Shown here piece by piece: positions 12,611 to 42,777 of a stretch of 64,000 nucleotides of DNA. The notes under the pieces were generated by a model, which was not told where the DNA came from, searched no databases, and saw only the letters and a program-made list of their open reading frames with translations. The first letter of the stretch is position 1; each line of letters opens with the position of its first letter. This DNA comes from a virus (lineage: Duplodnaviria; Caudoviricetes), in the IMG/VR virus record IMGVR_UViG_3300042975_000096, one strand, 5' to 3'. The translations under genes and the position numbers were made by a program.

Positions 12611-12619
12611 ATTAACCCC

Positions 12620-14732: not shown

Positions 14733-15580
14733 CTTAATAACTTCAACACCAAATCATCTTTGTGAAAACATAATTTATTAATCACATCTTGTTTTGTGAA
14801 TTTTATTTCTTGCGTGACATTATCATCAAAATCAAACAACCTCAAATATTCTGTCAAGCCATCATCTTGTGATTTATTTTCCGAAGAATAATAAACCTTT
14901 TTATTCATATAAACAAACTCAAAAATTAACTTGCCAATATTTTCAGAATATATTGAATCAACAACGTTTCTCCATCGTTGATATTTTAATGTATTTTTCA
15001 ACATACTATTAAACTTTATTTCATCTGTATCTTCCGCATTTCTCTCTAGCTCATCAAACACACCATTTTTTTTATCCAACGAATCCAAATAATTTAATCT
15101 TTCTAATGAAAACTTATGATAATACACATAGTAATTGTTAGTATAAAATTTTTCATTACATGGATTTCCTAAAATTTTTATATTTGGTATATTTTGCACA
15201 TACTTGTTTTTTTTATTGTTATTCATTATGTAATCATAAAACATTAACCCAGAATCAAGCATAATTAAATTATCATACCTAAAATCAAACGTAGATAGAT
15301 ACTTCATGATGGCAAATGAAACAATTAAATTCTCTGATTTATGATTATTTATCCATTCATTTAATTTTCCAATATTACAAAATTCATAATTCATTCCTGC
15401 TATTGGTATTGATTTATTTATCGTATTAATATATTTCATATTGTTTTTCATATCTGCACAATCAACAAATATATAACATTTTATATTGCAACCATATTTT
15501 TTTAAATTAAAATACATATCAAATAACGAAGTCGTTATCCCGTTCATTTGTGGATAATAAAAGACTATATCAACATTCAT
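14729..15580 (-). CDS. Unknown-family protein, paralogue 1 (possible GT-B-like fold)
   Basis: Shares NG.TTS..D..NL, Y.KFS.ER, ENIGK.IFEF and DDGLTEYL with 18917-19789 and 40631-41512. Confidence 0.6.
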   Translation of the reverse strand: MNVDIVFYYPQMNGITTSLFDMYFNLKKYGCNIKCYIFVDCADMKNNMKYINTINKSIPIAGMNYEFCNIGKLNEWINNHKSENLIVSFAIMKYLSTFDFRYDNLIMLDSGLMFYDYIMNNNKKNKYVQNIPNIKILGNPCNEKFYTNNYYVYYHKFSLERLNYLDSLDKKNGVFDELERNAEDTDEIKFNSMLKNTLKYQRWRNVVDSIYSENIGKLIFEFVYMNKKVYYSSENKSQDDGLTEYLRLFDFDDNVTQEIKFTKQDVINKLCFHKDDLVLKLLR

Positions 15581-15587
15581 TGTTTAA

Positions 15588-16571
15588 TTACCTCGATTTC
15601 AATATATTCTTCAGCGACTCTATACTTTTTGTAGCGAATGCAACATTACCATGTATTTCGCAATAAGGCTCTTTTTTTAATTGCTTAAATAAATCATTTA
15701 CTGATTCTCTATAAAAATCATTTATAATTATAATGTAATCATAACTATCATGAAATTTTTTCAACAATTCCATCTTTGAATAACGTTGTTTACATATATC
15801 AAAATCAATAAAATCTATAATATCAAAATAGCCATTGCTAATTTCCTCACTGTTCTCATAAACAACTAAGCAATGTCCTTTATATAATTGTTTGAATTCA
15901 TTATATAATTTTTTCATATATATTAATGAGTTAACTTGATTCATTACTCTTTTTAAATTTTTTCTTACATAGAAATAAGCGATTGGCTCATTACAAAAAG
16001 AATAATGTTTGCAATTTGACACATACCTAAATATTATTTCATCGTCAGCCATACGCAAATAAGAACAATCCCACTCACCATATTTTTCAAAACAGTTTCT
16101 ACTATGCGCAAAAGAGCACGTATCAACCTGATTAGAAACAAATATATTCGTTTTTGAACAATCAAGCCCTTTTAACTCTTTATTTCCTTCATCATCAACT
16201 ATAAAATATTTTGTAGTAACAACTTCTGTATTATCATTGATAACCTTTAATAAATTTTCACAGCATTTTTTATCTGTCTCATCATCATCATCAGGATATA
16301 AAATCCAATCCCCAGTAGAATGAATAACCCCATAATTTCTTGCATAACAATGACCTTTGTTTTCTTTCAATCGAAACATTTTTATATTATCCATACCTAG
16401 CGCATCAATAAATTGCTTCTTTTTTTTATATTCTTCAATCAATGAACAATCATCAACAATAATTAATTCCCAATTAGCATATGTTTGATTGACAACAGCC
16501 AAAACTGCTTTAGGAAAATAACAACTTCTATTATATGTTGGCATAATGAATGAGAATTTTATTCCATCCAT
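15588..16571 (-). CDS. Glycosyltransferase family 2
   Basis: FSFIMPTYNR, ELIIVDDCS, ARNYGV, PDDDD. Confidence 0.9.
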   Translation of the reverse strand: MDGIKFSFIMPTYNRSCYFPKAVLAVVNQTYANWELIIVDDCSLIEEYKKKKQFIDALGMDNIKMFRLKENKGHCYARNYGVIHSTGDWILYPDDDDETDKKCCENLLKVINDNTEVVTTKYFIVDDEGNKELKGLDCSKTNIFVSNQVDTCSFAHSRNCFEKYGEWDCSYLRMADDEIIFRYVSNCKHYSFCNEPIAYFYVRKNLKRVMNQVNSLIYMKKLYNEFKQLYKGHCLVVYENSEEISNGYFDIIDFIDFDICKQRYSKMELLKKFHDSYDYIIIINDFYRESVNDLFKQLKKEPYCEIHGNVAFATKSIESLKNILKSR

Positions 16572-17323
16572 TCTTCTTTACTCCTTTTTGATTGTTCCCA
16601 TTCTATGTCTTCAATAGGTTTTCTACAATACTTACAAAAATCATTTTTATTACGATAAAACTTATCAATAACCTCATCTGTCACATTATCATCATAAATA
16701 TCTAGAATATCTTCTTTTTTAACCTGATATGTTTCATTAAAATACTTATTAAAAATATCAATATACGCCTGTATTGGACATAAATACAATTTGCCATCTT
16801 TCAATTGCATTGATTTCCAATGAATCATACAACAATCAAAATCTGTTTGTTTCGCTTCATGTGTTAAAATATGTTTTCTTAATATTTTTGTTTTTTCATA
16901 TTGATTAAAATTTTTTGTTCTAACCCCAACGCTATTCAATAGTGCAAATAACTTCTCATAATTAACATTAATTGGATACCTTGTCATTTCTACCAAAACA
17001 TCATACTCTATTAAACTGTTTATCATTTCTCCCATTCTCTGTTTTAACAAACTACCATTACTTAATACACTCATCTTTGTATTTGGCATAATTTCATGAA
17101 TTGCTTTAAAAAATTCACAAACATTCGGATGAAGTAATGGTTCACCACCAAACAATCTAATATTATCTACAATTATTTTCGTGCCTAATTGTTTCAAATC
17201 TTTTTTAAATTCCTCAACATCAGCAAACCACGGTTCAGATAATGGCGAAAAATGCGCACATCCTTTACAGTTCACATTACAATGATTTGTAATGTGATAT
17301 TCAATCATTCTTACATGTTTCAT
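16559..17323 (-). CDS. Radical SAM protein (CxxxCKGCxHF type)
   Basis: HITNHCNVNCKGCAHFSPL, GGEPLLHP, FCKYC; paralogue of 13884-14732. Confidence 0.9.
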   Translation of the reverse strand: MKHVRMIEYHITNHCNVNCKGCAHFSPLSEPWFADVEEFKKDLKQLGTKIIVDNIRLFGGEPLLHPNVCEFFKAIHEIMPNTKMSVLSNGSLLKQRMGEMINSLIEYDVLVEMTRYPINVNYEKLFALLNSVGVRTKNFNQYEKTKILRKHILTHEAKQTDFDCCMIHWKSMQLKDGKLYLCPIQAYIDIFNKYFNETYQVKKEDILDIYDDNVTDEVIDKFYRNKNDFCKYCRKPIEDIEWEQSKRSKEEWME

Positions 17324-18912
17324 TTTATAATCATTCCTTTATCAAACACTAACCCATCCAGCTTTTCATTAAACATCCTAATCATATCTTTTGCATAATT
17401 GAAGATTGGCATACCACTATCATTAAATGAAGTATTTATTAATATTGGATTCCCCGTCTTTTTACCAAAATCAATTAATAAATCATGCAACCATTTATCC
17501 TCTTTAGCATCTACTGTTTGAATTCTAACTGTTCCGTCTAAATGTATTGCCCCATCAATAATATTTTCTTTTTTACAATACCCTAAAACATTCATATATG
17601 GGGCATCAACATTAATATCAAAATATTCTCCCATATACTCGCGAGGAATTAATATGCCATATGGTCTATACCATTCTCTATTTTTTATTTCGTTTAATTT
17701 ATCATGCATTTCTTTATGTAACGGTGAAGCCAATATACTTCTATGTCCTAACGCTCTCGGGCCCATTTCTATATTTCCCCTACATATACCAACAATACCA
17801 TCTTTTTCTAAAATTTCAATCAATTTATCATTATTAATATCAATCAAGTTATCCTTTATGTGCCTATAAAAATATGCTTTATCATAAATTTCAGAAGTAC
17901 AATAAAATTCATTAATATCTAAACTATTTAACTCATTTGGTTTGTTTTTTAATAAATAATTAAATATCGCTCCAACTGATTGACCTGTATCAGAAGCTAT
18001 TGGATTCCAATATATTTTTTTAAACCACATTGATTTAGCCAAATAATAATTCAACATGCAATTCAATGCGCATCCACCTGAAAAAACCAACGTATCACTA
18101 TATTCTTTATATTTATCAAAAACATTATTTAATACATCATCTATCCATATTTTTTGAAAAGTATATGCCAAATCATATTTATTATGCTTTAATTTCAATT
18201 GGTCAATATAATTATTAATATACTTTTCGATATTTTCTTTTTCAGCCCAATTATTCCAATTTATACTTTTTATTTTTTTCATAAAGTCGCGTATATCTCT
18301 AATTTCTATAAAGTTACTAGATATACCGGCATAAGCCATAAATTTACCTTCCATGCCATCATAATATTTAGTTTCTAAAAAATTACTTGATAATATCTCA
18401 TAAAACAATCCATAACTAAATCGTTGTTCTTGAAATATTTTTTTTAATTTATTGTTTTTATATAAAAACACCGCATGGTTTCCATCACCTTTACCATCTA
18501 TTGATACACATAATGCATTATCTAATTTATTTATTATTGCAGTTGGCAATACATGATTTTCTTGATGATGCATTTTTTTCATTTCACAATTCTCTAACAT
18601 TTTAACAAACTCAAATGATTCTTGTTTCAAATATCCATCTTCGAATTGAGTATAACACCACACAACTACGTCAAATCTATCCACATTAAACAAATCTTTA
18701 ATCATTTTTTGTGCTTTATAAATGTTTTTATGCATACAATCTTTATAAATTGAATCAACATAATTAGCATAATCAATCTTCTCTTGTGAATGAAACGAAA
18801 AATGTTTTTTCTTTAACAATTTATCCATTTCAATGTATCTTAGCTCTTTTGTTTCTGTATCATAATAGCATACATTATAGTCTTGATAGCATTGTATTCC
18901 TAAAATTTTCAT
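17320..18912 (-). CDS. O-carbamoyltransferase (NodU/CmcH family)
   Basis: HHQENH, SIDGKGD, EGKFMAYA, SGGCALNC, GPRALGHRSILA, KNREWYRPYG, HLDGTVRIQTV, INTSFN. Confidence 0.92.
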   Translation of the reverse strand: MKILGIQCYQDYNVCYYDTETKELRYIEMDKLLKKKHFSFHSQEKIDYANYVDSIYKDCMHKNIYKAQKMIKDLFNVDRFDVVVWCYTQFEDGYLKQESFEFVKMLENCEMKKMHHQENHVLPTAIINKLDNALCVSIDGKGDGNHAVFLYKNNKLKKIFQEQRFSYGLFYEILSSNFLETKYYDGMEGKFMAYAGISSNFIEIRDIRDFMKKIKSINWNNWAEKENIEKYINNYIDQLKLKHNKYDLAYTFQKIWIDDVLNNVFDKYKEYSDTLVFSGGCALNCMLNYYLAKSMWFKKIYWNPIASDTGQSVGAIFNYLLKNKPNELNSLDINEFYCTSEIYDKAYFYRHIKDNLIDINNDKLIEILEKDGIVGICRGNIEMGPRALGHRSILASPLHKEMHDKLNEIKNREWYRPYGILIPREYMGEYFDINVDAPYMNVLGYCKKENIIDGAIHLDGTVRIQTVDAKEDKWLHDLLIDFGKKTGNPILINTSFNDSGMPIFNYAKDMIRMFNEKLDGLVFDKGMIIK

Positions 18913-18916
18913 ATAG

Positions 18917-19789
18917 TTACCCTTTCAATAATTTTAATATTTCATCATTATGTTTCATAAACAAAACCTCTTGTAATTTTGATTTTGATAATAAATTCAA
19001 ATCAAAATCAAAATTATCATCAATTCCAAATTGAAAAAGAAATTCTGTTAATCCATCATTGATTTTTTTATTCTTACAAGAATAACTGGCTTCTTTTTCT
19101 AATAGCAAAAATTCGAACATCATTTTTCCTATATTCTCATAATAATCAGCACCAAATTCTGTATATGGATTATCTTTTGATTTTTTGCTATATCTAAAAT
19201 AATCATATCTTTTATACGAAAACGGTTTAATATCTAATTTGTTCTTTTTTCTTTTAAAATATTCTTCAGATGTTAATATGCCATTTTCATTTGTGCTTAT
19301 TTGTTTCAATCTATTAATCCGCTCTTCTGAAAACTTCATATACCAAATAAAACTATTCTTTACAAATTGTGCATTAAACTCATTACAAATAGTAATAATG
19401 TCATTATCATTTATATACGAAATCATATTATTGAATTCATTTTGAGAAATCTCTTTCTTATATATAAATGCAGGATAAAATAAAAACACTTTATTAAAAT
19501 CAATCTCTATCGTTTTTGTTTGAACTAAATCAATTACCTCACTACTAATCACACAAGCATTTCCATGTAAATCGTAATGCATTTTACCATACTTCAATGG
19601 CAAATAAACAATATTTGATTCATTACCAAAATAGCGTTTGAATCTTTTAACTACTAATTTATCATCAAAGAATACAATTAATCTTATTTCCCAATTTGTA
19701 TATTTTCTTAAATTATAAAACAAATCTTCAAATGAAGTATATGCCCCATTTAATTCATATAAATAATAAATCAAATCTATTTTCATCAC
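18917..19789 (-). CDS. Unknown-family protein, paralogue 2
   Basis: NGAYTSFEDL, KFSEERI, ENIGKMMFEF, NDGLTEFL. Confidence 0.6.
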   Translation of the reverse strand: MMKIDLIYYLYELNGAYTSFEDLFYNLRKYTNWEIRLIVFFDDKLVVKRFKRYFGNESNIVYLPLKYGKMHYDLHGNACVISSEVIDLVQTKTIEIDFNKVFLFYPAFIYKKEISQNEFNNMISYINDNDIITICNEFNAQFVKNSFIWYMKFSEERINRLKQISTNENGILTSEEYFKRKKNKLDIKPFSYKRYDYFRYSKKSKDNPYTEFGADYYENIGKMMFEFLLLEKEASYSCKNKKINDGLTEFLFQFGIDDNFDFDLNLLSKSKLQEVLFMKHNDEILKLLKG

Positions 19790-20925
19790 TAAACACTCTC
19801 AATACATTTATATATTTTCATCATTATATTCTCTATACTGTACTTTTTTGATTCCTTAATACAATTCTTTCTTATATTAACAATATCCTTACAGAAACTA
19901 TTGCGTATAGAAGCCGGTAAATCGTCTGTGACAAGCCATCCATTATATCCATCTATAACTATATCATTCATTGATTTACACTCCTTGTATCCAATCACAG
20001 GCGTTCCAAATGACATTGCTTCTAATGCTACAGTTGGCAAACCTTCTATTATTGATGGTATCACTAAAACATGTGCATTACGATAGAACGGTTCTACATT
20101 TTTTTGATATCCATGAAAATGAATATTGTCAAATTTGAAGTATTCAGATATATCCAAAAAACCATCATTGGCATAATTATACCCTACAACATCACACTCA
20201 TAATACGTATCTTTAATATAGTCTAATAATAACTGCGTTCGCTTTATATCCCTGTTTATTCTTCCAACATATAGAATGTTACTTCGTTTCTTATTGATTT
20301 CTATGTTGTCAGGTATTTCTATACAATTATAAAAAACGTATGATTTATCTTTATATTTTTCACTAACATATTGAGGTAATAAAAATCCTAGTCTATCACA
20401 AGATTCCAACATCATATCATAAAGTAACTCTTTATCTTTCAATGCTTTTTGAAAAAATAAATATTCTAGCCCTTGCATTTTACTAAATGTGTTTTTAATA
20501 TATTTTGGCTCATTATGAAAAAACATTATTATTGGAACATTTGTCATTTTAGATATAATTGACCAAAATATTACTTGCTGACCCCCACCTGCATTGCAAA
20601 ATATACAACGTGGTTTTATCTGAAAAACGGTTCGTGCAACTTTATTCATATATCCTCTAGAAAAATAAGTAATCATATCACTATGAACAATTATATTTTT
20701 CAAATTCAAAAAATTTCCTGGTTGCTGAAACAGATGAACTTCGTATTTTTTAGATAACGATTTGCAAATTTTTATGGTATATTTCTCCGCTCCCCATAAA
20801 TATTGTTCACCTTCATTTTTCATAATATTGCAAGTAATAATAATTTTATTTTCATCTCTATTTTGTACAAACCATTTTTTGTTTAATGTAAATTGAGCAT
20901 ATAATAAATCATTTTTTATATTCAC
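19789..20925 (-). CDS. Glycosyltransferase, GT4-type (GT-B)
   Basis: ILYVGRI...K, VIPSIIEGLPTVALEAMSFGTPVI (EX7E), DGYNG. Confidence 0.9.
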   Translation of the reverse strand: MNIKNDLLYAQFTLNKKWFVQNRDENKIIITCNIMKNEGEQYLWGAEKYTIKICKSLSKKYEVHLFQQPGNFLNLKNIIVHSDMITYFSRGYMNKVARTVFQIKPRCIFCNAGGGQQVIFWSIISKMTNVPIIMFFHNEPKYIKNTFSKMQGLEYLFFQKALKDKELLYDMMLESCDRLGFLLPQYVSEKYKDKSYVFYNCIEIPDNIEINKKRSNILYVGRINRDIKRTQLLLDYIKDTYYECDVVGYNYANDGFLDISEYFKFDNIHFHGYQKNVEPFYRNAHVLVIPSIIEGLPTVALEAMSFGTPVIGYKECKSMNDIVIDGYNGWLVTDDLPASIRNSFCKDIVNIRKNCIKESKKYSIENIMMKIYKCIESV

Positions 20926-21736
20926 GACATGCCATCCTTAAAATATTTTTTTCCAACTTCTTATCCACCAATTTGTTTGCATACATTTCCCATATTTTAC
21001 CAAACAAATCAGCTTTCACCCATGGTTTTGGATTACTAGCATAATGAATTATCTTTATTTTTTCTGATTTTATTCTTTCTCCATAAATCCGAATATATTC
21101 ATTAAACTTCAAATGACCATAATTGTTTGCCAAAAAATTATATCCATAATCTATATATTTTATTTGACCATTAAATGCATCATTCATAATATCCTGTTCC
21201 CATAAATGATAATCTTTTGCTTCTGATTCTAACCTTATATAATAACTATACATTGTATCTTTTTTATTAATAACAGTATTCCTTATCTTTTTTAGATTCA
21301 ATAAAATATTTCCTGCATTAAAATAATTTAACCCGTTTATCTTATCTCTTACTCCTGCTACAAAACAATCCTCAATATCAATTTCAAAAATTTCTGAAAT
21401 ATCTTCTATTACAACTGTATCTGCATCAATATGAAAAACCTTGTCACAATCTAGTAATTCATGCAACAACAATTTATAATATACTACACCTGCATTATCT
21501 TCTCTGATAAAAATATTTTTATCAATATAAATTGGATGGATGCAAAAATCAATAGAGCTTAATTGACCTATTTCTCCTATATCATTAAACTCTATACATA
21601 ACAAATAAACATCGTAATTTACATCACGATGCTTATTTGTTTTCAATGAATACATTGAAACATATGTTTGATATAGATATGATTTATTTGTAATGTAACA
21701 AAGATTAAAACGTCTTTGCAAACTCATTATAAACAC
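20909..21736 (-). CDS. Glycosyltransferase family 8
   Basis: HIDADTVV, YFNAGNILLNL, EQDIMN, YNF, IIHYASNPKPW. Confidence 0.9.
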   Translation of the reverse strand: MFIMSLQRRFNLCYITNKSYLYQTYVSMYSLKTNKHRDVNYDVYLLCIEFNDIGEIGQLSSIDFCIHPIYIDKNIFIREDNAGVVYYKLLLHELLDCDKVFHIDADTVVIEDISEIFEIDIEDCFVAGVRDKINGLNYFNAGNILLNLKKIRNTVINKKDTMYSYYIRLESEAKDYHLWEQDIMNDAFNGQIKYIDYGYNFLANNYGHLKFNEYIRIYGERIKSEKIKIIHYASNPKPWVKADLFGKIWEMYANKLVDKKLEKNILRMACREYKK

Positions 21737-22598: not shown

Positions 22599-23366
22599 TT
22601 AATAAATGTATGCATAACACCATCCATATCTTCTAACTACATGGCAAGAACAAACTTCATCACCAAAACACGTACAATAATTACAATTACATACACATGT
22701 ATTGGATAATAAATTAGCAGCTCCAACTAAGAATCTATTGAAAAACTCAGCAAATGTTTTATCCCCAACTTCAACAGTCGCAACAAACAACGCAACCCAT
22801 TGGTCTAAATTATCCGTTTGCAATGCCATATTTCCCCACGGTTTATATTTAACAGTTCCATTTGGCGAACCTTCTTCAAACCCTGTTACTGAATCATCCG
22901 TAGAATTACCATGCGAAACACCTAGTACACAATATGTTGGATTACCTCCGTATGAAGCACTCTCCATGTGACTATAATCTGTTGCATTATTTATACGATT
23001 ATTATACAAATCCCATCTATAATCAGCTGGATGATTGTTTTTATCATATTGATACATATGCAATGTTGTTTTAAATGCACGTTTTATATCGTCAGCCGTT
23101 ACCATTACATCTGGGTCTCCACTTGTACCAATTTCAATATCATCAACGCCACCACGTAATGACCATTCTCTACGCAAAATACTCCATAGCTTTTGCATTC
23201 TTTCAAATGTTAATTTCGCTCCTTCTGCCACAACTTCCATTTGTGGATTTCTTGGGGCATCACTACCCGGATGAGAACCATAAGGTTTACAAATCGGAAA
23301 TCCTGCTGGTCTTTCAATTGTATTCCAACCGCCCTCAACATGCATTACATAAGGCCCTTGTGCCAT
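22599..23366 (-). CDS. Protein with Cys-rich C-terminus (CVCNCNYCTC...CSC...C); candidate rSAM substrate/virion protein
   Basis: GGAG RBS; late-promoter motif upstream; 8 Cys in the last ~32 residues. Confidence 0.6.
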   Translation of the reverse strand: MAQGPYVMHVEGGWNTIERPAGFPICKPYGSHPGSDAPRNPQMEVVAEGAKLTFERMQKLWSILRREWSLRGGVDDIEIGTSGDPDVMVTADDIKRAFKTTLHMYQYDKNNHPADYRWDLYNNRINNATDYSHMESASYGGNPTYCVLGVSHGNSTDDSVTGFEEGSPNGTVKYKPWGNMALQTDNLDQWVALFVATVEVGDKTFAEFFNRFLVGAANLLSNTCVCNCNYCTCFGDEVCSCHVVRRYGWCYAYIY

Positions 23367-23412
23367 AATTAATCAACTCCATATATTTATTATATAAATT
23401 TTCAATTATTAT

Positions 23413-23427
23413 TCTAATATATAGATA
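23413..23427 (-). promoter_or_regulatory. Putative late promoter heading the modification operon
   Basis: TATC TATATAT TAGA (one mismatch to consensus), 47 nt upstream of 23366. Confidence 0.45.
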
Positions 23428-23436
23428 CGTTTTCTA

Positions 23437-24639
23437 TCATTTTTTATCATGATTTTCCGTAATACGTTGATTAGCAATATTACAATAATGCAATTCTTTT
23501 TCAATTCCTATAAATTTTCTATCTAAAGTATCACATGCAACACCTGTAGTTCCACTTCCTGAAAACATATCCAAAACAATCTGACCTTCTCTTGTAATTA
23601 ATTTAACCAAATATTCCATTAGCTTTATTGGTTTAACTGTAATATGGTCATTATATTTACCTTTTTCAGATTTAGAAGCCTTTGCACAATAAAAAAATCT
23701 TGATGCTCCACCCTCATCACCATATGTTATTTGGATATCTCCTGCTTTTCCCAATCCACCATGTTCAAAAAACACGCCCTCTTTTGTTCGTTTACAGTTT
23801 GTTCCGCTTTTCAAATGACCACTTTGTTCATCTAATAATTCGGCAGACACTTCATCTAAAATAACATTTGACGGAAATCTCCCTTTTGGATTCGCACTAG
23901 CCATAACATTTTTCGTATTATCAAATCCACAACTCTTATCATTCATAACAACTGCATTTTTTCTACCATGTCTAGAAGTTGTTTTTAATGGTTCATTGTG
24001 CGAAATTCTACAATCATCAATGTTAATAGCACCCGTTCCATATTTCAAAACATTTTCACATACTGTTTTTTCTTCTATTGGTTTTCTCGCCACACAAATC
24101 AATTCTTGTGCAGGTTTTAATGCAGTATTCCATCCGTTCCACTTTTTAGCTTCTTCTGTTTCGAATTCTACATCTCTAACATATTCTTGACCATTATAAT
24201 CTTTTGGTCTATCATTATCTGCATGGATTTTATTATATCCCATAGAAGCCGTAGCCTTTTTTCCTTTAAGTTTCTTAAATGCTTGCGTATTGGCTGAACC
24301 ATTTTTTATTTTTGATTCAATTTGCTTTCCAACATCAGCCCCATGTGGCATACCACTACCATAAATCCATGACATCGTATCACGAATTTCAAATCCTGCA
24401 TCTTCAATAGCACAAACCATACGATGATATGTTCTTGTGGAATTAAATACAAGAATGTGACCACCCGGTTTCAATACACGGAATACCTGCTCCCACATTT
24501 CTACACTATTTACAATACCTGTTTTATCCCACCCTTTTGACATAAAACCAATATTATAAGGTGGGTCTGAAATAACAGCATCAACGCTATTACTTTTCAT
24601 TTTTTTCATTTCTTCAATGCAATCGCCATTTATAATCAT
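23437..24639 (-). CDS. DNA N4-C/N6-A methyltransferase (beta class, long insert)
   Basis: ISDPPY, HITVKPIKLM, DMFSGSGTTG. Confidence 0.92.
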   Translation of the reverse strand: MIINGDCIEEMKKMKSNSVDAVISDPPYNIGFMSKGWDKTGIVNSVEMWEQVFRVLKPGGHILVFNSTRTYHRMVCAIEDAGFEIRDTMSWIYGSGMPHGADVGKQIESKIKNGSANTQAFKKLKGKKATASMGYNKIHADNDRPKDYNGQEYVRDVEFETEEAKKWNGWNTALKPAQELICVARKPIEEKTVCENVLKYGTGAINIDDCRISHNEPLKTTSRHGRKNAVVMNDKSCGFDNTKNVMASANPKGRFPSNVILDEVSAELLDEQSGHLKSGTNCKRTKEGVFFEHGGLGKAGDIQITYGDEGGASRFFYCAKASKSEKGKYNDHITVKPIKLMEYLVKLITREGQIVLDMFSGSGTTGVACDTLDRKFIGIEKELHYCNIANQRITENHDKK

Positions 24640-24644
24640 TTATC

Positions 24645-25715
24645 TTAATTCCTTCTCATCTTTTGATAGGCTTTAATATAATTGGAAATCTTTTTATACA
24701 TAGCGCACACACTATCATTATTCGATTTATTCCAATCTTCAACTTTACCATTGCTATTGATGGAATTACATCTAAAACAGAAAATTGAATCGCATTCCTG
24801 ACATTTACTGTTTTTTGCAAACATATTGTTTCTTACTAAATAATTATGTTCAATCTTATACAAACAATTATCGTCAAAAATATTTGTATAAAACATTTTA
24901 TCATCTGCATACAAACAACCATGGCAATACGTTACTCTACCATCTAAATCAACAATAAACGAATCGTCACCACCATGGCAATCAGCCCTATCTGCCGTAT
25001 CAAACCACACAAATCCAGTATATCCATGATTATCTTTTTTGTTGTCTATAAAATACTGAATCAACTTAATAAATTGATTGTTCATTTTATCAAAATCAAT
25101 TAGTCCATCACTTAATGTATCTGGTGTACATGCAAAAACAACTTTATGTTTTAACGTCTGATTGAATTTGTCATAATTGACATATTGCTGATAAATATTA
25201 TTCTCTAAATCATTTACAGTACATGTAGATTTAATTCCAAAATTAAATCCGTTATCATCAAAAAAATGAATTGCTTCTTTAACAACTTTATCCGTTTCCA
25301 TAACTGTTTTTCCTAACTGAACCCTTTGATTATTTTCTTCATTATGGAAATCATAAGAAACCTGAACCTGTAGACGTTTCCCAATCAAATTCTTTAGCTC
25401 TAGCAATTCTTTTTTGTATTTATTTACCAATGAACCATTCGTATACATAAAAAATTCAACATTATCATACATACTAAATTCTTTTACAATACGATAAATA
25501 TCTTTGAAATAAATGAGTGGTTCACCACCCCAAAACTCAACATGAACTAAATCATTGTTTTCTTGAAGAACATGGAGCAATTCAATTACCCTGTCAAACG
25601 TCTTTGGATATAATGACTCTTTGCTCTCTACCGCGCCATTCTTAACCTCAAAACAATATTTGCATCTAAAATTACACGCCTTACCCATATTGATGGATAT
25701 TCCAACTTTGTTCAA
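24645..25715 (-). CDS. Radical SAM/SPASM protein
   Basis: CNFRCKYC, FWGGEPL, CHGG...YCHGC, CQECDSIFCFRC. Confidence 0.9.
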   Translation of the reverse strand: MNKVGISINMGKACNFRCKYCFEVKNGAVESKESLYPKTFDRVIELLHVLQENNDLVHVEFWGGEPLIYFKDIYRIVKEFSMYDNVEFFMYTNGSLVNKYKKELLELKNLIGKRLQVQVSYDFHNEENNQRVQLGKTVMETDKVVKEAIHFFDDNGFNFGIKSTCTVNDLENNIYQQYVNYDKFNQTLKHKVVFACTPDTLSDGLIDFDKMNNQFIKLIQYFIDNKKDNHGYTGFVWFDTADRADCHGGDDSFIVDLDGRVTYCHGCLYADDKMFYTNIFDDNCLYKIEHNYLVRNNMFAKNSKCQECDSIFCFRCNSINSNGKVEDWNKSNNDSVCAMYKKISNYIKAYQKMRRN

Positions 25716-26764
25716 TTATTCCACCATCCTTTTTTTGTTATATCTATATTATATTCTTTGTTCATAAATAAATATAAACTAGATACCATATTATAAATTT
25801 CCTTTAATAATAAACAATATCCATCAACAATATCTCCGTTTTTATACTGCACATATAAACATCCTTGATTACAGAACTTATTTATTTTACATTGATTACA
25901 TTTATCATTTATCGTTATGTTATGTTCCGCTACAAATTTAATGTTATCATGATAATATTTATTCTCATTACTATCACACAATCTATAATAATCGTTTGTA
26001 TAAAATCTAGAACAAGGATATATAATTCCACTCGGAGTTAAACTAAATCCATTTTTACCTGCAAAACAAACAAAATTTCGTTTTCCTGAAACAATATTAT
26101 CTAATACTCTTTCTACAAACCCTATTCTTATCCATCTATGATAATTTTTATAATGAAAAATTAAGAACTCTTTCAATTTTAAAAGCTCTTTTTTTATCAC
26201 TATTAAATTGTTTTCATTCCAAACATCATCTTTTACAAAAGATATATCCATATATAAATCATCACAATCATTTTCCATCGCTAATTTATAAAAGTAATTT
26301 ACAACCTTCATAATGGATGGATTGTGATTGCTTATCATTGCTTTAGCTTGTACAGGAACAATATTGTTTTTTACCAATTGCTCGAAATTTGAATGATTAT
26401 TATCACATTCTCCATCACAACTAATACCTATATTAATATGATGAAGTTTTAAAATGTTTTTTATTTCTTCATTCAATAATAATGCATTCGTTTGCAAAAA
26501 ACTGAATTTTATATTATAATTGTTCTTCATCCACTCATCAAATAAAATAATTTTATTTATTTCTAATAGTGGCTCTCCACCAAAATAAGTAACATTATAC
26601 TCACCACTAAATTGTACATCAGTCATAACAGATAGATTTTCCACGCAATTCATTTGCTTTTTTAATGATTCAAATGTTAATACTTCTTCATCTTGGTTGA
26701 TATAACAATACTTACATTTCAAATTGCACTTATTTGTCATATGCAACTGTAATACATGTTCCAC
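25712..26764 (-). CDS. Radical SAM/SPASM protein
   Basis: CNLKCKYC, YFGGEPL, CFAG...YPCSRF, CNQCKINKFCNQGC. Confidence 0.9.
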   Translation of the reverse strand: MEHVLQLHMTNKCNLKCKYCYINQDEEVLTFESLKKQMNCVENLSVMTDVQFSGEYNVTYFGGEPLLEINKIILFDEWMKNNYNIKFSFLQTNALLLNEEIKNILKLHHINIGISCDGECDNNHSNFEQLVKNNIVPVQAKAMISNHNPSIMKVVNYFYKLAMENDCDDLYMDISFVKDDVWNENNLIVIKKELLKLKEFLIFHYKNYHRWIRIGFVERVLDNIVSGKRNFVCFAGKNGFSLTPSGIIYPCSRFYTNDYYRLCDSNENKYYHDNIKFVAEHNITINDKCNQCKINKFCNQGCLYVQYKNGDIVDGYCLLLKEIYNMVSSLYLFMNKEYNIDITKKGWWNN

Positions 26765-34788: not shown

Positions 34789-34838
34789 TATAATTTAAAA
34801 AGTATGAGATTAAATAAATCTTAATCCCATACTCAATA

Positions 34839-35627
34839 TCAATAACCATATTCTTGTCTCAAAATATTCTCAATATTTTTATGAATATATATATCTTTTA
34901 TTTCATTCACATTCATAGTTAAAATGCATAAATTAATAAATTCATGAAATACTTCTGCATAAGCAAGATATAATTTATCAAAATCAATAAAATCATTTGG
35001 TTTTTTCCAATGTTTCCATGATATTTGTTGTCTCACAGAAGCACACGCATCAGACAATCTACAACTCGCCTTCAGAATAGTAATGTCTTTATTAATGTCA
35101 TCCTTAGTATATAAATACTCATCAATTGACTCTTTTTGTCTATTATATGCAACATCAATCAAATCTTCTTTTTCATTTAATGAAACATTATATTTTTTAT
35201 CATAAGCAAATTGTATATCATGTGTGTTTGCGCCACCAACAATAAACAAATCTAACATAAAATGCAAAATATCGATTACTTCTTTTTTTAACTCAATATC
35301 AATTGAATTATTTTTATCATTTTTTGAATAAAGCACTAGATGTTCTCTAACTTCTCTTATTTCATCTTCAACACAAATAAGATATTTATCTACCCATTTA
35401 TCCACTTCTTCTTTTGTTGGGTTATCTACTTTCCTTATTCTGCTTGCAAAAGACCGTTGCATTTGCATTAACAACTCCCATGCAGTTAAAGATATATCAA
35501 AATTATTTTCTTTCAAAACCCGTTCAACAATTTTATCATTTTTTGCATCAACATATGCTTTATACTTTGCACAATCACAATGTAGGCTTTCGCATTGCAT
35601 TTCTAAATATGGACAATTATTATTCAA
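34839..35627 (-). CDS. All-alpha dNTP pyrophosphatase (dimeric dUTPase/T4 gp56-like), tandem domain
   Basis: EDEIREVREH...KEVIDILHF in the first half; ISWKHWKK and KNIENILRQEYGY in the second half. Confidence 0.75.
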   Translation of the reverse strand: MNNNCPYLEMQCESLHCDCAKYKAYVDAKNDKIVERVLKENNFDISLTAWELLMQMQRSFASRIRKVDNPTKEEVDKWVDKYLICVEDEIREVREHLVLYSKNDKNNSIDIELKKEVIDILHFMLDLFIVGGANTHDIQFAYDKKYNVSLNEKEDLIDVAYNRQKESIDEYLYTKDDINKDITILKASCRLSDACASVRQQISWKHWKKPNDFIDFDKLYLAYAEVFHEFINLCILTMNVNEIKDIYIHKNIENILRQEYGY

Positions 35628-35662: not shown

Positions 35663-36043
35663 TTATTTCTCAATATTATTATTTTGGCTTCTCATTGGAG
35701 CTTGTTGTCCCATACCATTAGATTGATTTAATCCAAATGCACTTTGAATAAACCCACCAACCTTACTTTTTCCAACAGAACCACCCATAACTGCTCCTGC
35801 AACATTAATTCCTGTTACGCAATATGCAAATGTTTCAATAATATCAGCCCATGTTTTACTAATATCTGTATTTGCAATATACATATATGCTCCGAACAAT
35901 AATGATGCAACTAAACAAATCATTAATAATGATACTCTAGTTTCGTCAACTGACATAACATTATGAAAAAAATTATGCGTTGGTTGTTGTTCTTGCTGTG
36001 TTGGCTCTACATTATTTTGATTTTCTTCCATTTTATCCTTCAC
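35663..36043 (-). CDS. Two-TM membrane protein, holin-like
   Basis: Hydrophobic segments VSLLMICLVASLLFGAYMYI and IIETFAYCVTGINVAGAVM. Confidence 0.5.
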   Translation of the reverse strand: MKDKMEENQNNVEPTQQEQQPTHNFFHNVMSVDETRVSLLMICLVASLLFGAYMYIANTDISKTWADIIETFAYCVTGINVAGAVMGGSVGKSKVGGFIQSAFGLNQSNGMGQQAPMRSQNNNIEK

Positions 36044-36545
36044 CTGTTTCCTTTGTTGTTTGACACGTTATATTTTCGCAAGACATGTTTTGGCATGTTA
36101 ATTCTTGACAATATTTTGATTGACAAGAATATTGCTGACAAAACGTACTTTGACATTTTTGACATGATTCACAATAACATTCTGATTCACACGTTTCACA
36201 TACTTGACATGTTTGACATGTTTGACACGCTTCACAATGTTGACATGTTTGACATGGTATTTCTTGACATGTAACTAATTGGCACGTCATGACTTGACAC
36301 GTTGTTATCTGACATCCTTGACATCGTTGACAACTTTGACAAGCCTGACAAGATTCCACCTGACATTTTACACTCTGACAACAATTAGAAGGTGAACAAT
36401 TACAATTATTAACATTCCCCTTATATAAATCCAGTCTATCTAATGCCGTTTTTAGCTCTTGTAATTTGGTTTTATTTACAACGCTTCTTATTGGACTCCA
36501 ATCTGTTTTTTTTATTTTGTTATTCTTTGCCACAACCATCTTCAC
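36033..36545 (-). CDS. Cys/Gln-repeat protein; candidate radical-SAM-modified precursor
   Basis: ~45-aa basic leader then 31 Cys in C[QE]x and C[QE]xxx repeats; overlaps the rSAM/SPASM gene. Confidence 0.75.
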   Translation of the reverse strand: MKMVVAKNNKIKKTDWSPIRSVVNKTKLQELKTALDRLDLYKGNVNNCNCSPSNCCQSVKCQVESCQACQSCQRCQGCQITTCQVMTCQLVTCQEIPCQTCQHCEACQTCQTCQVCETCESECYCESCQKCQSTFCQQYSCQSKYCQELTCQNMSCENITCQTTKETGEG

Positions 36546-37617
36546 TTCCCATATCCGTAATTAACTCTAATATTGGATAATTCATTACGTTAATCATTGT
36601 GCAATAAAATTCTTCTCTTGCCTTTGTTCCAACCAGAGGGCATCCATTCTTGCACAAAATTTGAACAGGACATTTATCGCAAATAGAAGAATTTTCTTTA
36701 ACTTTATCCATATCACAAACATTCTTCATCACATTAAATGAGCTATCCATAATAGTGCCAACCTTATCATCAGTATTATGGCACTTATACAAATTCCCTT
36801 GCAAATCTACATTAAGCACCTCATATCCATTTCCACATCTATCTCTTGTTGGTTTAATGTTATTTGTACGTAAAGCAAATCTAACTTGATTTATTTTTTG
36901 CTCTATATACGCCTTTTTAACTACTGATATTTCTGATTTTCCCTGAAAAAAGTTTAAATATTCATCACACAATTCATGTATCTGTGTATATACTTTATCA
37001 TAATCAAAAGATTTTAAATCAATATTTTCCAAATTAACATCTAATAAATCATCAACATTAAAACTAATTGTATGTCCATTGTAATTTTCAACATAATCTT
37101 TATTTAATTTTTCACAATCTTCCAAATAATCCTTAATATAATTATAAGAAGACATTACACCCGATACAGAAAACCAATTTAAAGAAAATATATTTTCTTT
37201 ATTATCTTCAAAAACATTATATCCTCTAGTTTTAATTGAGTTTCTTCCATCCCAACTAATACAAACGCCATTGAAATGCTCGTTAACAAACTTTACTTTT
37301 TCTTCATCAAATAATTTACCATTCGTAATCATTGTAAAATATAAGTTATCAGGTTTTCCCATTTCCTCTATTTTTAGCACAATTTCTTTTACTTTATCCC
37401 AAAACACTAATGGTTCTCCACCATAAAACTGTACATGTAACATTGAGTTTTGAGATTTTGCAGTTTCAATAATAAAATTATACAACATTGGATTTACTTG
37501 TCTTTCCATTGCAACATTTACCACATCATGTTGCAAACAATATTTACATTGCAAATTACATTCATGCCCTAACATGATAAATATTGTTGATATATTTCTA
37601 GATAAAAAATTGCTCAT
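36520..37617 (-). CDS. Radical SAM/SPASM peptide-maturase-like protein
   Basis: CNLQCKYC, FYGGEPL, CGNG...YKCH, CDKCPVQILCKNGCP...FYC. Confidence 0.9.
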   Translation of the reverse strand: MSNFLSRNISTIFIMLGHECNLQCKYCLQHDVVNVAMERQVNPMLYNFIIETAKSQNSMLHVQFYGGEPLVFWDKVKEIVLKIEEMGKPDNLYFTMITNGKLFDEEKVKFVNEHFNGVCISWDGRNSIKTRGYNVFEDNKENIFSLNWFSVSGVMSSYNYIKDYLEDCEKLNKDYVENYNGHTISFNVDDLLDVNLENIDLKSFDYDKVYTQIHELCDEYLNFFQGKSEISVVKKAYIEQKINQVRFALRTNNIKPTRDRCGNGYEVLNVDLQGNLYKCHNTDDKVGTIMDSSFNVMKNVCDMDKVKENSSICDKCPVQILCKNGCPLVGTKAREEFYCTMINVMNYPILELITDMGSEDGCGKE

Positions 37618-38820
37618 TTATTTATTTCCTTTCAATACAGACATTATCATTCCAATATTTGTCCAATCCATGAATTTAATTGCTTCTTCTACAGTCATAA
37701 CATGCAAATGAATACGTTCAGTATCTTCAACTACTCCGTGTACTTCATTATCTTTTTTAACAGAATCAATTTCTTCTTGTGTTAATTCCACACTAAACAA
37801 TGCAATTCTGTGCGAACATAATGTAGCTGCTGATTGTTTTATTGTTTCATAATTGAATCTATCAGAATCCAATACTAATCCTGTTTCTTCCTCTAATTCT
37901 TTTGATGCTGTCTGTAATCTATCATCATCTTCATTAAGTGAAGAACCACCTGGTAATTCAAATACCATTTCGGCTTCATTAACCACAGGAGTTCTAAACT
38001 CTTCACATACAATTAACTCCGATTTCATAATGTCTTCTTCATTTTTGCTATATGCAAATATATAACTCATATCTGTTCTTGATATAACAAATTCATTATC
38101 TTTAACTCTATCTTCCTTAACCCCATCATATGACTCTTTTACATAAACATCTGGCTTATATACTGCCAAAAATAATTTTTTTGCTTTTGGCATATAAAAC
38201 TCATATAAAAACTCAAAATTTTCTAATTTGTTTCCAATTTCTTTTTGTGGTTGATACCAATTTTGAAATTGATTTGATTTAAAAATATGTTGTGGAACTA
38301 ACACTTCTGTGTTCTCTCTATAAATTCCATCGCCAATAAAATCCAATGCATCATTTAATAAAGCTTTTAAATTATTATGCCATTCATATTTTCCATCTGA
38401 AATCTTTTTTATATAATCATTCTTTACCGCACTATCTGGTCCACCAATAACCAACTTATCAGTATTAAAAAACAAACCAAATTCAATATTTGTTGTTAGA
38501 GCTAACATTTCATTATCAGGTCTAAATTCTCGTGGAATCCAAAATACGATTGCATCTGCCATTTTTAAACATTTGTGCTCCCACTCAATTTGTTCATCTT
38601 TATCATCAGGATTAAACGGTTCATCATCTCTATTTTCAGGTACAAATACAACACCATCGTAATCGAGTTCTCTTAATATTGTTAATGCTTCTTCACGCCA
38701 GCCTAACTCTTTTTTTTCGCGCGGTGTCGGACCAGCTAAAAAAATAGATTTTGTTAAAGATTGTGGTATATCTTCTCTTGAATGTATTTCAATCATATTA
38801 TTTTTTCCTAACCTTTTCAT
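37618..38820 (-). CDS. Nucleoside 2-deoxyribosyltransferase-like domain fused to a NUDIX hydrolase
   Basis: IFLAGPTPR...WR...QIEWE...FWIPR...TTNIEFG; ELPGG...ASKELEEETGL (Nudix box). AGGAG RBS favours the ATG at 38820. Confidence 0.85.
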   Translation of the reverse strand: MKRLGKNNMIEIHSREDIPQSLTKSIFLAGPTPREKKELGWREEALTILRELDYDGVVFVPENRDDEPFNPDDKDEQIEWEHKCLKMADAIVFWIPREFRPDNEMLALTTNIEFGLFFNTDKLVIGGPDSAVKNDYIKKISDGKYEWHNNLKALLNDALDFIGDGIYRENTEVLVPQHIFKSNQFQNWYQPQKEIGNKLENFEFLYEFYMPKAKKLFLAVYKPDVYVKESYDGVKEDRVKDNEFVISRTDMSYIFAYSKNEEDIMKSELIVCEEFRTPVVNEAEMVFELPGGSSLNEDDDRLQTASKELEEETGLVLDSDRFNYETIKQSAATLCSHRIALFSVELTQEEIDSVKKDNEVHGVVEDTERIHLHVMTVEEAIKFMDWTNIGMIMSVLKGNK

Positions 38821-38854
38821 ATTATTACATTCTCCTTTTTTCACATAAATCTTT

Positions 38855-40649: not shown

Positions 40650-41512
40650 ACATTTAACAACAAATCATTTTTATTAAATCCCAACTTATCAAATAATTGT
40701 TGCTCAGTAATACATATTCGTTGTTCAAATGAATCATCTATATTAAATAACCTTAAATATTCTGTTAGCCCATCATCATGTGTTTTGTTTAATGGCGAAT
40801 AATACACTTTTTTACCTAATGCAGAAAACTCAAAAATCATCTTTCCTATATTTTCAGAAAATACTGAATTATCTTCCGTAACACTTCTCCATCGATTGTA
40901 ATGTAATTCATTTAGCATCATATTGTTTAATAACATATTCCCATTTTTTGTCCTTTTACAACTTGAAATTGTTCCATTAACAACATCCATCTTTTTTAAA
41001 TGATTAAACCTTTCTTTGGAAAATTTATGATAATACACAAAATATTTTTCCCAATCAAAAAAAGTCTGATTCATTTTATTTCCCAACATTATAGTATTCG
41101 GAAGTCCTTTAACATAATCAATAAATTTACTATTTTGATTATAAAAATCATAAATTATTCTACCAGCATCTAATAATATTAACTTATCATATTTAAATGG
41201 TATTGAATCAATAAATCTAAAAACGCCAAATGACATAATTAAATTGTTAAAGTTATTATTTTTTATAAATTCATTTAATGTATGGATTTCTACATATATT
41301 GGATTTAATAATTTAATAGGAACGCTTTTGTTTAACGTCTGTATATATTCCACATTTTGTTTCACCATTGAGTCTGACGCATCAAACAATATGTAACAAT
41401 AAATATTATTCATATATTTGTTTAAGTTGTAAAACGAATCAATCAATGATGTAGTTGTCCCATCTAAAAACGGATAATATATAACTATCGCATTCTTTTT
41501 TATAAACTCCAT
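40631..41512 (-). CDS. Unknown-family protein, paralogue 3
   Basis: DGTTTSLIDSFYNL, YYHKFSKERF, ENIGKMIFEF, DDGLTEYLRLF. Confidence 0.6.
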   Translation of the reverse strand: MEFIKKNAIVIYYPFLDGTTTSLIDSFYNLNKYMNNIYCYILFDASDSMVKQNVEYIQTLNKSVPIKLLNPIYVEIHTLNEFIKNNNFNNLIMSFGVFRFIDSIPFKYDKLILLDAGRIIYDFYNQNSKFIDYVKGLPNTIMLGNKMNQTFFDWEKYFVYYHKFSKERFNHLKKMDVVNGTISSCKRTKNGNMLLNNMMLNELHYNRWRSVTEDNSVFSENIGKMIFEFSALGKKVYYSPLNKTHDDGLTEYLRLFNIDDSFEQRICITEQQLFDKLGFNKNDLLLNVLKKGN

Positions 41513-42777
41513 ACCTTTATTCCTTTTTTTTCAAAATATTTTCTATCAAACAAACCTTTTATATCAAATAGTGTCTTATCTTTTTTTAAGGCATTGGCAA
41601 TATATTTTTTATGTTTTAAAAATGAATCATGCTTAACAACAACAACTATACTATCCACATTTTTAGGAAGTTGATTAACAATATTGATTGAATTTCCATA
41701 TAAAGTTTTTAATTCTTCTTTATTACACACATCATCAAAAACAATAACCTTGTATCCAACTGTTACTAAAAAGTCGTACAATTCAACTGCTTTTGAGTTT
41801 CGTACATCATTACAATTTTCTTTAAATGTGATTCCCATCAATAATATTGTTTCATTTTTATTTGGCAATTCTTTTTCTATTTGTTCTCCAATAAAACCAA
41901 TAACATATTCATTAATATTACGTGACTGTAAAATAATATCATAAATATCCAATCCCTTTATTATTGGTTTTAAATAGTACGGGTCAACGCCAATACAATG
42001 ACCGCCAACCAATCCTGGTTGATATTCCGCATTAATAAAATTAAATTTAGAACTAGCTACATTTATCACTTCCGTTGTATCAATATTATAATAATGACAT
42101 AATCTAGCGAACTCATTCATCAAAGCAATATTTACATCTCTTTTTACATTCTCCATTATTTTTGACATCTCCGCAACCTCTAATGAAGAACATGCTCTAA
42201 CTTTATTACCTAAAATTATTCCATACAATTGTTTTAACTCTTTACAATAAAATGCATTACTGCCTGAAACTAATTTTGTGATTTCTTTTATTGTTTTCCC
42301 ACCTTTACCTGGTTGTAATCGTTCTGGGGAAAAACCAACTCCAAAATCATCATTCAATTTCAATTTTGATTCTTTTTCTAAGATTGGAACACATAAATTT
42401 CTAGTAGTTCCTGGGCAAACAGTTGACTCAAATATAACTATATTCTTTTTTTTCAACACTTTACCTACTGATTTACAAGCAGAAACTACATATATATAAT
42501 CTGGATTATTTCCAGCATCAACTGGAGTTGGTACACACACTATATATACATTGCAATCTTCTGGCATTTCAGATACGAATCTTATATTTTTAAGTAATTC
42601 AGAATCAACACTTTCTGTTTCATCAATACCATTTTTATATTTTTCCATTTTTTCTTCATTAACGTCAAACCCATACACAGTTACATATTTACCAAATTCA
42701 GAAGCCAATTGAATTCCAACATATCCTAATCCAACAATACAAATCTTAATATTATTCATTATCTCAACCCTTTCCAA
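41500..42777 (-). CDS. Nucleotide-sugar 6-dehydrogenase (UDP-GlcNAc/GalNAc dehydrogenase, WbpO/TviB-like)
   Basis: GLGYVG, CVPTP, FESTVCPG, FSPERLQPG, PGLVGGHCIGVDPYYL, GITFKENCNDVRNS. Confidence 0.9.
   Translation of the reverse strand: MERVEIMNNIKICIVGLGYVGIQLASEFGKYVTVYGFDVNEEKMEKYKNGIDETESVDSELLKNIRFVSEMPEDCNVYIVCVPTPVDAGNNPDYIYVVSACKSVGKVLKKKNIVIFESTVCPGTTRNLCVPILEKESKLKLNDDFGVGFSPERLQPGKGGKTIKEITKLVSGSNAFYCKELKQLYGIILGNKVRACSSLEVAEMSKIMENVKRDVNIALMNEFARLCHYYNIDTTEVINVASSKFNFINAEYQPGLVGGHCIGVDPYYLKPIIKGLDIYDIILQSRNINEYVIGFIGEQIEKELPNKNETILLMGITFKENCNDVRNSKAVELYDFLVTVGYKVIVFDDVCNKEELKTLYGNSINIVNQLPKNVDSIVVVVKHDSFLKHKKYIANALKKDKTLFDIKGLFDRKYFEKKGIKVWSL

Follow-up and report, generated by a model that had tools for sequence, protein, structure and literature searches.

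Radical S-adenosylmethionine (SAM) enzymes that place thioethers on proteins are already known from bacteria and archaea, with QhpC and CrpA as substrates, and so are the ranthipeptides whose synthesis depends on a recognition element (RRE) for ribosomally synthesized and posttranslationally modified peptides (RiPPs). We examined a 64,000-nucleotide stretch of viral DNA (the window; Duplodnaviria, Caudoviricetes; IMG/VR virus record IMGVR_UViG_3300042975_000096) in which a radical SAM/SPASM gene on the minus strand overlaps an open reading frame (ORF) for a 170-residue, 31-Cys protein. By both profile and fold, the nearest structurally solved relative is the enzyme CteB/ScfB with the SCIFF peptide CteA (PDB 5WGG and 5WHY), which shares with the phage pair a seven-Cys SPASM domain, Ser, His, and an amide at catalytic-proximity positions 4 to 6, and an adjacent Cys-rich candidate substrate. 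Unlike CteB, whose N terminus is a 90-residue RRE and whose peptide is short with six Cys, the phage enzyme has no RRE, is about 20% identical in sequence, and stands beside a 31-Cys repeat protein. With moderate confidence, we interpret the two genes as a dedicated protein-modification pair whose product is a thioether-crosslinked, uncleaved, stiff, tail-associated filament or fiber accessory of the virion. The enzyme would install permanent sulfur-carbon bridges on the adjacent Cys-Gln protein. The N-terminal helix of that protein would stay on, as an enzyme docking site and/or as an oligomerization and attachment element, and the product would resist reduction. The features of the pair are as follows.

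36520..37617 (minus): radical SAM/SPASM enzyme, 365 aa, candidate thioether synthase without an RRE; Pfam PF04055, phrog_1802.
37537..37560 (minus): CX3CX2C radical SAM cluster motif (Cys20, Cys24, Cys27), invariant in 119 homologues.
36601..36837 (minus): SPASM domain with seven invariant Cys (261, 279, 313, 316, 322, 326, 339).
36033..36545 (minus): candidate substrate, a Cys-Gln repeat protein of about 170 aa with 31 Cys; its start overlaps the 3' end of the enzyme gene.
36420..36473 (minus): amphipathic helix, residues 25 to 42 of a structure model, ending a fixed distance ahead of the first Cys.
36060..36404 (minus): Cys-rich core, an Asn-Cys junction (Cys48 to Cys56) followed by Cys-Gln/Glu units in blocks of period 5 or 3, to Cys161.

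An earlier note on this DNA, made from its letters alone, had described these two overlapping ORFs and a third at 35663-36043, and all three were recovered on the minus strand; the start of the 170-residue ORF is uncertain (36545, 36539, or 36533). The note had also remarked on Gln or Glu after almost every Cys. Indeed, the next residue is Gln for 22 of the 31 Cys and Glu for 5 (27/31), a coupling with a binomial p of ~8e-15 that was reached by 0 of 100,000 shuffles of the core (maximum, 18). Successive Cys are spaced 2, 5, 1; 5, 5; 3 (four times); 5 (four times); 3 (seven times); 4, 2; 3, 3; and 5 (six times). The proposed alternation of 3- and 5-residue blocks holds as a block structure (permutation p of 0.0003) and is broken by one 4+2 irregularity. 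The G+C content at third codon positions equals that of the enzyme gene (0.20 versus 0.20). In an independent DNA run, one contig covers the entire Cys gene and differs within it at one synonymous site only (36417, the third base of the Gly43 codon); the repeat is therefore not an assembly artifact. A spurious ORF was likewise rejected.

Residues 1 to 47 are basic, with a net charge of +7. In the predicted structure only the helix at residues 25 to 42 is confident, the Cys region has no confident fold, and the mean model confidence (pLDDT) is 49; the basic helical leader that had been proposed is thus present. A fold search with this model gave a Z score of 3.6 at best, which is meaningless, and the leader profile found nothing significant among solved structures. 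The protein has no Pfam, NCBIfam, or PHROG match, and neither do 42 homologues, save two weak single matches. The search against SCIFF and CXXX-repeat target models (TIGR03973 and TIGR04114/PF27846) suggested in the earlier note was run and gave no match, with 0 NCBIfam families for 43 members. A language-model lead to PF27846 was below threshold (score 0.83, 30% of one cluster), and the Cys period here is 3 and 5, not 4. Complex prediction for the enzyme with residues 8 to 62 of the Cys protein gave no answer (score of 0.15 against a mark of 0.32) and was used neither way.

The enzyme has the CX3CX2C motif, a partial TIM barrel, and a C-terminal domain with two auxiliary cluster sites, as expected of a radical SAM/SPASM protein, and its structure model is confident (pLDDT of 94.8). 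Its profile alignment to CteB (5WGG; E value of 6e-33) starts only at CteB residue 97, past the RRE. We aligned 119 homologues (33 to 68% identity). Because only 5 to 47 residues precede the radical SAM motif in 119/119, the family has no fused N-terminal RRE, as the note had surmised; a discrete RRE/PqqD family protein was also absent from the scanned neighbor genes, which is weaker evidence than that for the fused case. The seven invariant SPASM Cys map onto CteB as the three ligands of auxiliary cluster I (AuxI) and the four of AuxII, an arrangement that leaves an open iron for the substrate thiol in CteB and CrpC (PMC13692751). At the six catalytic-proximity positions defined by Precord et al. 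(PMC10288494), the enzyme has L28/Y65/I97/S121/H280/N281, compared with F/F/T/S/H/Q in CteB and Y/T/I/S/K/L in the sactisynthase StsB. It resembles CteB at positions 2, 4, 5, and 6 and differs from it at 1 and 3, and it differs from StsB at 2, 5, and 6. This profile appears nearer to that of CteB than to that of StsB and favors, without proving, a non-alpha thioether. Together with the seven-Cys SPASM domain, it suggests that the earlier assignment to thioether-forming maturases was apt.

Dozens of phages carry the pair, in most cases among their tail genes. In an enzyme tree of 65 clusters, a Cys-Gln neighbor was found for 13 of the 14 in the supported clade that holds the window's enzyme; across all 65, 38 have a Cys-Gln protein, 15 have a protein with a Cys-Asn/Asp tail, and 12 have neither under a strict rule. 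When a DNA pattern for the Cys protein served as the query, a radical SAM gene lay within 1.3 kb at 45 of 47 loci with the helix and Cys-Gln repeats, and the remaining 2 run off the edge of their DNA. Chance Cys-Gln repeats lacking the leader never had a radical SAM gene near them, and the same pattern in prokaryote genomes returned mostly chance simple repeats with neither leader nor enzyme. Adjacency is conserved in both directions, in keeping with the proposed enzyme-substrate pairing, and homologues without the enzyme, which the note had listed as evidence that would count against it, are not common. The protein of locus L168 has the same 31 Cys and the same opening order of spacings as that of the window, and the two enzymes are 45% identical.

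The L168 Cys gene was missed by the gene caller. Such genes were overlooked at L168:2438-2900 and L009:9124-9426, and the Cys-Gln family is therefore undercounted in protein databases. A profile of the leader and first Cys cluster gave 511 clusters at 50% identity, and Cys-Gln repeats were present in 79 of the best 150. The leader alignment was too variable to serve as a locus query; a single-enzyme search of viral contigs returned nothing, whereas an alignment query did return relatives. No cultured phage carrying the Cys protein was found, and the enzyme has no match in phage G. The cassette is present in prophages of cultured Megasphaera and Acidaminococcus strains. We also noted variants of the locus. 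The enzyme is in tandem duplicate in L012, L013, L169, and L403 (paralogue ~40 to 43% identical), where the Cys proteins have long inserts, and L049 has four enzyme paralogues. A 40%-identical enzyme in a Sporomusaceae genome (L008:6865-9074) adjoins a Cys-Asp-repeat protein with a Gly-Asp tail, outside any evident tail module. At L173:4144-8137, a ThiF-family gene and three radical SAM genes adjoin two long Cys-Gln fusion proteins.

The genomic setting of the homologues points to the tail. In Negativicutes prophages, the order is tail fiber, enzyme, two Cys-Gln paralogues, Hint (separate or fused), often a second radical SAM gene, and lysis genes; in a Megasphaera prophage it is tape measure, Dit, tail fiber, enzyme, two Cys-Gln genes, Hint, and lysis, and in L009 to L011 it is baseplate, fiber, enzyme, Cys-Gln genes, and lysis. 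The upstream tail proteins in these prophage cassettes frequently terminate in Cys-Asn/Asp runs, and in two prophages the enzyme is accompanied by such proteins alone. Helix plus Cys-Gln modules homologous to that of the window occur as internal parts of 280- to 530-residue proteins, fused behind LamG or a long-tail-fiber connector domain beside radical SAM genes, or ahead of Hint or S74 chaperone domains; one S74 fusion (P0222) is on a 2-kb contig on which no enzyme is visible and is uninformative in this respect. Stand-alone Hint-like genes follow Cys genes or the enzyme directly at L097:9813-10208, L101:9079-9444, and L102:9107-9496 and are elsewhere fused to the Cys repeat; they might serve in self-cleavage or in joining the product to another part of the tail. 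Because of the tail-module position and the tail-domain fusions, and because no protease, transporter, or signal sequence was found, an uncleaved tail-associated protein fits better than a released peptide, and the virion appendage offered as one option in the note gains from the same observations.

In the prophage proteins, the helix corresponds to a single unit of a 35-residue repeat, usually present as three consecutive copies. The triple repeat was detected in 45 of 50 Cys-poor proteins, with scores reaching 38 bits where the best shuffle reached 7; the model was trained on a set from the same profile, which favors these scores. One Cys-free triple-repeat protein is encoded at the end of a siphophage tail module, ahead of the holin gene, and has no radical SAM gene near. 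The prophage Cys-Gln paralogues carry one and two units, which would add up to three. The window's helix scored above 1000/1000 shuffles against the prophage leaders and is a diverged homologue of them. The three-repeat domain itself (~35 residues per unit, with a conserved His-Ile-x-Glu-Leu-Arg helix; P0171, P0180, P0200, P0202, P0206, and others) is very widespread, has no Pfam model, and is found at the ends of phage tail proteins and of many secreted bacterial proteins.

Connectivity of the proposed crosslinks was assessed over 117 family members. Gln or Glu follows Cys in 565/592 cases when the previous Cys is 3 residues away, in 237/246 at 5, in 63/70 at 2, and in 47/64 at 8 or more; it also does so at spacings of 1 and 7 and beyond inserts of 47 to 118 residues. 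The only systematic exception is the 4+2 motif, in which the first Cys of CxC is never followed by Gln. Because the amide follows whatever the preceding spacing, the sole constant Cys-to-amide distance is i+1. A bridge from Cys to the C-gamma of its neighbor would close an eight-membered ring, like that of a vicinal disulfide. These counts slightly favor a local model, in which each Cys would be joined to its own next residue with one ring size throughout. A nested, PapA-like arrangement (CX3Q and CX5Q, each Cys joined to the Gln past the next Cys, with two ring sizes) is possible and finds some backing in the acidic residues that stand five or six positions past the last Cys in the jumbo-phage clade and from Asp pairs past the final Cys of the prophage proteins. 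The two ring sizes inferred in the earlier note are thus unproven, one local ring type fitting equally well. Among characterized systems, PapB accepts CX0D to CX6D, prefers CX3D, and uses CX0D inefficiently (PMC9413430); enteropeptin contains a six-membered ring formed by Cys and a single further residue (PMC12395415); and NxxcB tolerates Gln as acceptor (PMC9389541). A more specific proposal, which we hold only tentatively, is that phages of anaerobes build tail filaments shaped by a dense Cys-Gln thioether ladder (up to ~27 in 115 residues) rather than by a conventional fold and made by a radical SAM enzyme that works without an RRE; the 3/5 blocks would encode the geometry, and the repeat helix would anchor three units.

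Several observations weigh against a crosslinked virion protein. Throughout the clade, this phage included, the genes on either side of the pair are a nucleoside deoxyribosyltransferase-like/Nudix fusion and a dUTPase gene rather than tail genes, and virion location is the least secure step for this gene. The window's helix has no score in the triple-repeat model, and the repeat relation was seen for the prophage homologues only. The protein-side counts are not independent events, because one prophage group dominates the sample. In L006 and L007, the enzyme is intact and has no neighboring Cys protein, with a 116-nt gap at the expected place, and L101 and L102 have no Cys-Gln genes and retain the enzyme beside tail proteins with Cys-Asn/Asp tails; the pairing is therefore not obligate. 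In 61/119 enzyme homologues, position 259 (Asp in this enzyme), two residues ahead of Cys261, is an additional Cys that could fill the open AuxI site, and the match to CteB is close at only 3/6 proximity positions. At L006:9086-9203, where the enzyme and membrane genes are intact with no Cys gene between them, the gene has been lost or relocated. The genes that flank the pair in the window are as follows.

37618..38844 (minus): nucleoside deoxyribosyltransferase-like/Nudix fusion, first gene of the probable operon; abuts the enzyme start and has the same place in relatives.
35663..36043 (minus): small membrane protein, 126 aa; fixed neighbor in the jumbo-phage clade, not a core part of the pair.
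34839..35627 (minus): dUTPase_2-family gene, last gene of the probable operon; syntenic in relatives.
34800..34834 (minus): terminator-like hairpin closing the probable operon; consensus match only.

This setting bears on the first alternative, which we consider unlikely: that crosslinking occurs as proposed and the product acts outside the virion, inside the host cell during infection or at the cell envelope, possibly together with the membrane protein, with exclusion and host takeover as examples. The window comes from a jumbo phage whose major capsid protein is 80.6% identical to that of its relative Bacillus phage G and whose sequence is present in sludge and wastewater metagenomes, and the genes around the pair encode the Nudix fusion, the small membrane protein, the dUTPase, and a helicase. 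Since the minus-strand genes from the Nudix fusion to the dUTPase abut or overlap, they likely form one operon in the order Nudix fusion, enzyme, Cys-Gln gene, membrane gene, dUTPase. That order is kept in the phage G-like loci L005, L012, L013, L167 to L169, and L398 to L403, and an operon shared with nucleotide-pool and membrane genes and fixed in ~11 related phages favors action in the cell. The promoter scan was at chance level (83 found versus 82.7 expected), and no late-promoter motif was recognized on inspection by eye. Metatranscriptome contigs cover the enzyme, membrane, and Nudix genes in part and the Cys gene at its ends only, and such contigs tell nothing on transcription, strand, or level. 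Against action in the cell stand the homologous modules in tail cassettes and their fusion to LamG, tail-fiber connector, S74, and Hint domains. In addition, the membrane gene is limited to this locus in the jumbo-phage clade, is absent from the tail cassettes of prophages, and persists in L006 and L007, where the Cys protein is missing.

The membrane protein had been described in the earlier note as a two-segment, holin-like protein whose gene overlaps the end of the Cys gene. The holin assignment was not supported. The more likely start is the ATG at 36031, which has a better ribosome-binding site and lies 1 nt from the Cys-gene stop with no overlap, and the protein has one strong and one weak hydrophobic segment. 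It has no Pfam, NCBIfam, or PHROG match, no adjacent lysin, and no match in cultured phages, and its structural look-alikes have template modeling scores below 0.5 by query. A holin as part of the system was rejected for want of a family match and an adjacent lysin and for its persistence where the Cys protein is absent, and the membrane protein is probably not part of the enzyme/Cys-protein system.

Elsewhere in the window, a second, distant SPASM system at 22599-26764 (minus) has two enzymes at most 23% identical to that of the pair and a 255-residue protein whose C terminus is a Cys-Asn-Tyr-Cys run, a kind of motif also present on the S74-fused proteins in L070, L071, and L084. A run of glycosyltransferase-like genes with three more radical SAM genes lies at 10802-21736 (minus), and a UDP-sugar dehydrogenase gene lies at 41500-42777.

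A second alternative, quite unlikely in our estimation, is that free thiolates of the Cys protein bind Zn, Fe, or Fe-S in a metallothionein-like or metal-cored filament and that the enzyme has another substrate or a minor role. The protein is 18% Cys with a CxxC rhythm, the CxC of the 4+2 motif is the one place where Gln never follows, the enzyme persists without a Cys-Gln gene in the four loci named above, and CrpA itself has been suggested to bind metals (PMC13692751). Metal binding, however, requires neither Gln or Glu after nearly every Cys nor a SPASM enzyme at 45/47 loci.

Very unlikely, in turn, is that the enzyme acts on the Cys-Gln units by other chemistry, such as Cys oxidation of the kind performed by anaerobic sulfatase-maturating enzymes (anSMEs), C-C or C-N crosslinks, or epimerization. 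In the fold search, which also puts CteB nearest, anSME and ChlB score almost equally; identity to any characterized enzyme is only ~20%; and a possible eighth ligand is present in half of the enzyme family. Such chemistry fits poorly with the seven invariant SPASM Cys, with the His-Asn that follows the AuxI Cys (compare His-Gln in CteB), and with the absence of a sulfatase CXPXR motif from the Cys protein. An anSME-type role was rejected as a candidate in its own right: the enzyme has seven rather than eight invariant SPASM Cys and scores 54 bits against a cut-off of 349 for TIGR03942, and there is no CXPXR motif in the Cys protein and no sulfatase nearby.

Least probable of all is a true RiPP, with the leader cleaved, the core released as a toxin or signal, and the membrane protein serving export or immunity. 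The anatomy is indeed that of the class (a conserved N-terminal leader at a fixed distance from a Cys-rich core, beside an enzyme whose best family matches are RiPP maturases), but no peptidase, transporter, or discrete RRE is encoded among the scanned neighbors, no hydrophobic signal was found, the core varies greatly in length and sequence with inserts of up to 118 residues, and the module is internal to long tail-type proteins. The RiPP-like product of the earlier note is thus not upheld in the strict sense.

If a crosslinked tail protein is indeed made, viruses would crosslink their own particle proteins by radical chemistry, with bridges that would outlast the reducing, protease-rich gut and digester where disulfides fail. 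A common group of phage radical SAM genes, until now orphans, would gain a function, and the escape of such proteins from annotation and standard proteomics would be accounted for. The enzyme would also be a compact, RRE-free catalyst that uses Gln as acceptor and may form more thioethers on each substrate than any enzyme so far described. We found no description of a phage system of this kind in literature that covered subscription journals thinly, and novelty is to that extent unproven.

Among other known systems, PapB with PapA (freyrasin; NCBIfam NF047865) gives the best NCBIfam score, its nested CX3D geometry equals Cys to the next Gln in the period-3 blocks, and it tolerates CX0 to CX6. 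It differs in that the score is 112 bits against a cut-off of 340, in having six bridges versus up to ~27 here, in being described with an RRE, and in that the phage acceptor would be mostly Gln. The scores against ScfB/CteB (85/425) and QhpD (82/453) likewise leave the enzyme outside every curated ranthipeptide-synthase family (PapB, CteB/ScfB, QhpD). CrpC with CrpA of Methanococcus voltae (TIGR04463; PMC13692751) and QhpD with QhpC are like the proposed pair in that a SPASM enzyme puts non-alpha thioethers on a protein-sized Cys-rich neighbor; both are cellular, have an RRE, and use other motifs, and TIGR04463 scores 33 against 525 bits. NxxcB, which forms a streptococcal beta-thioether at Asn, shares a carboxamide acceptor and tolerance of Gln and differs in its short peptide, few crosslinks, and lack of close sequence relation. 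The chemistry of ChlB is not thioether formation. At 375 residues and aligned from its residue 14, ChlB was solved with its precursor leader (PDB 9GM3) and so provides a precedent for leader binding without an N-terminal RRE; its peptide is short, its crosslinks are few, and it has no close sequence relation to the phage enzyme. PHROG 1802 ("radical SAM domain-containing protein") and gp28/gp30 of Achromobacter phage JWF are, like the enzyme here, phage SPASM proteins, and in JWF the SPASM enzyme comes two genes after a tail-fiber-like protein ending in a Cys-Asn/Asp run and a Hint domain; identity is ~25%, the motif is Cys-Asn/Asp rather than Cys-Gln, and no function is assigned. The phage enzyme would thus work like CteB, PapB, and CrpC without being a member of their families, because it falls below their cut-offs and has no RRE. 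What this locus and its relatives add to these systems is a conserved 3/5 register, Cys-Gln coupling that is independent of spacing, a leader of repeat origin, and the proximity profile of the enzyme.

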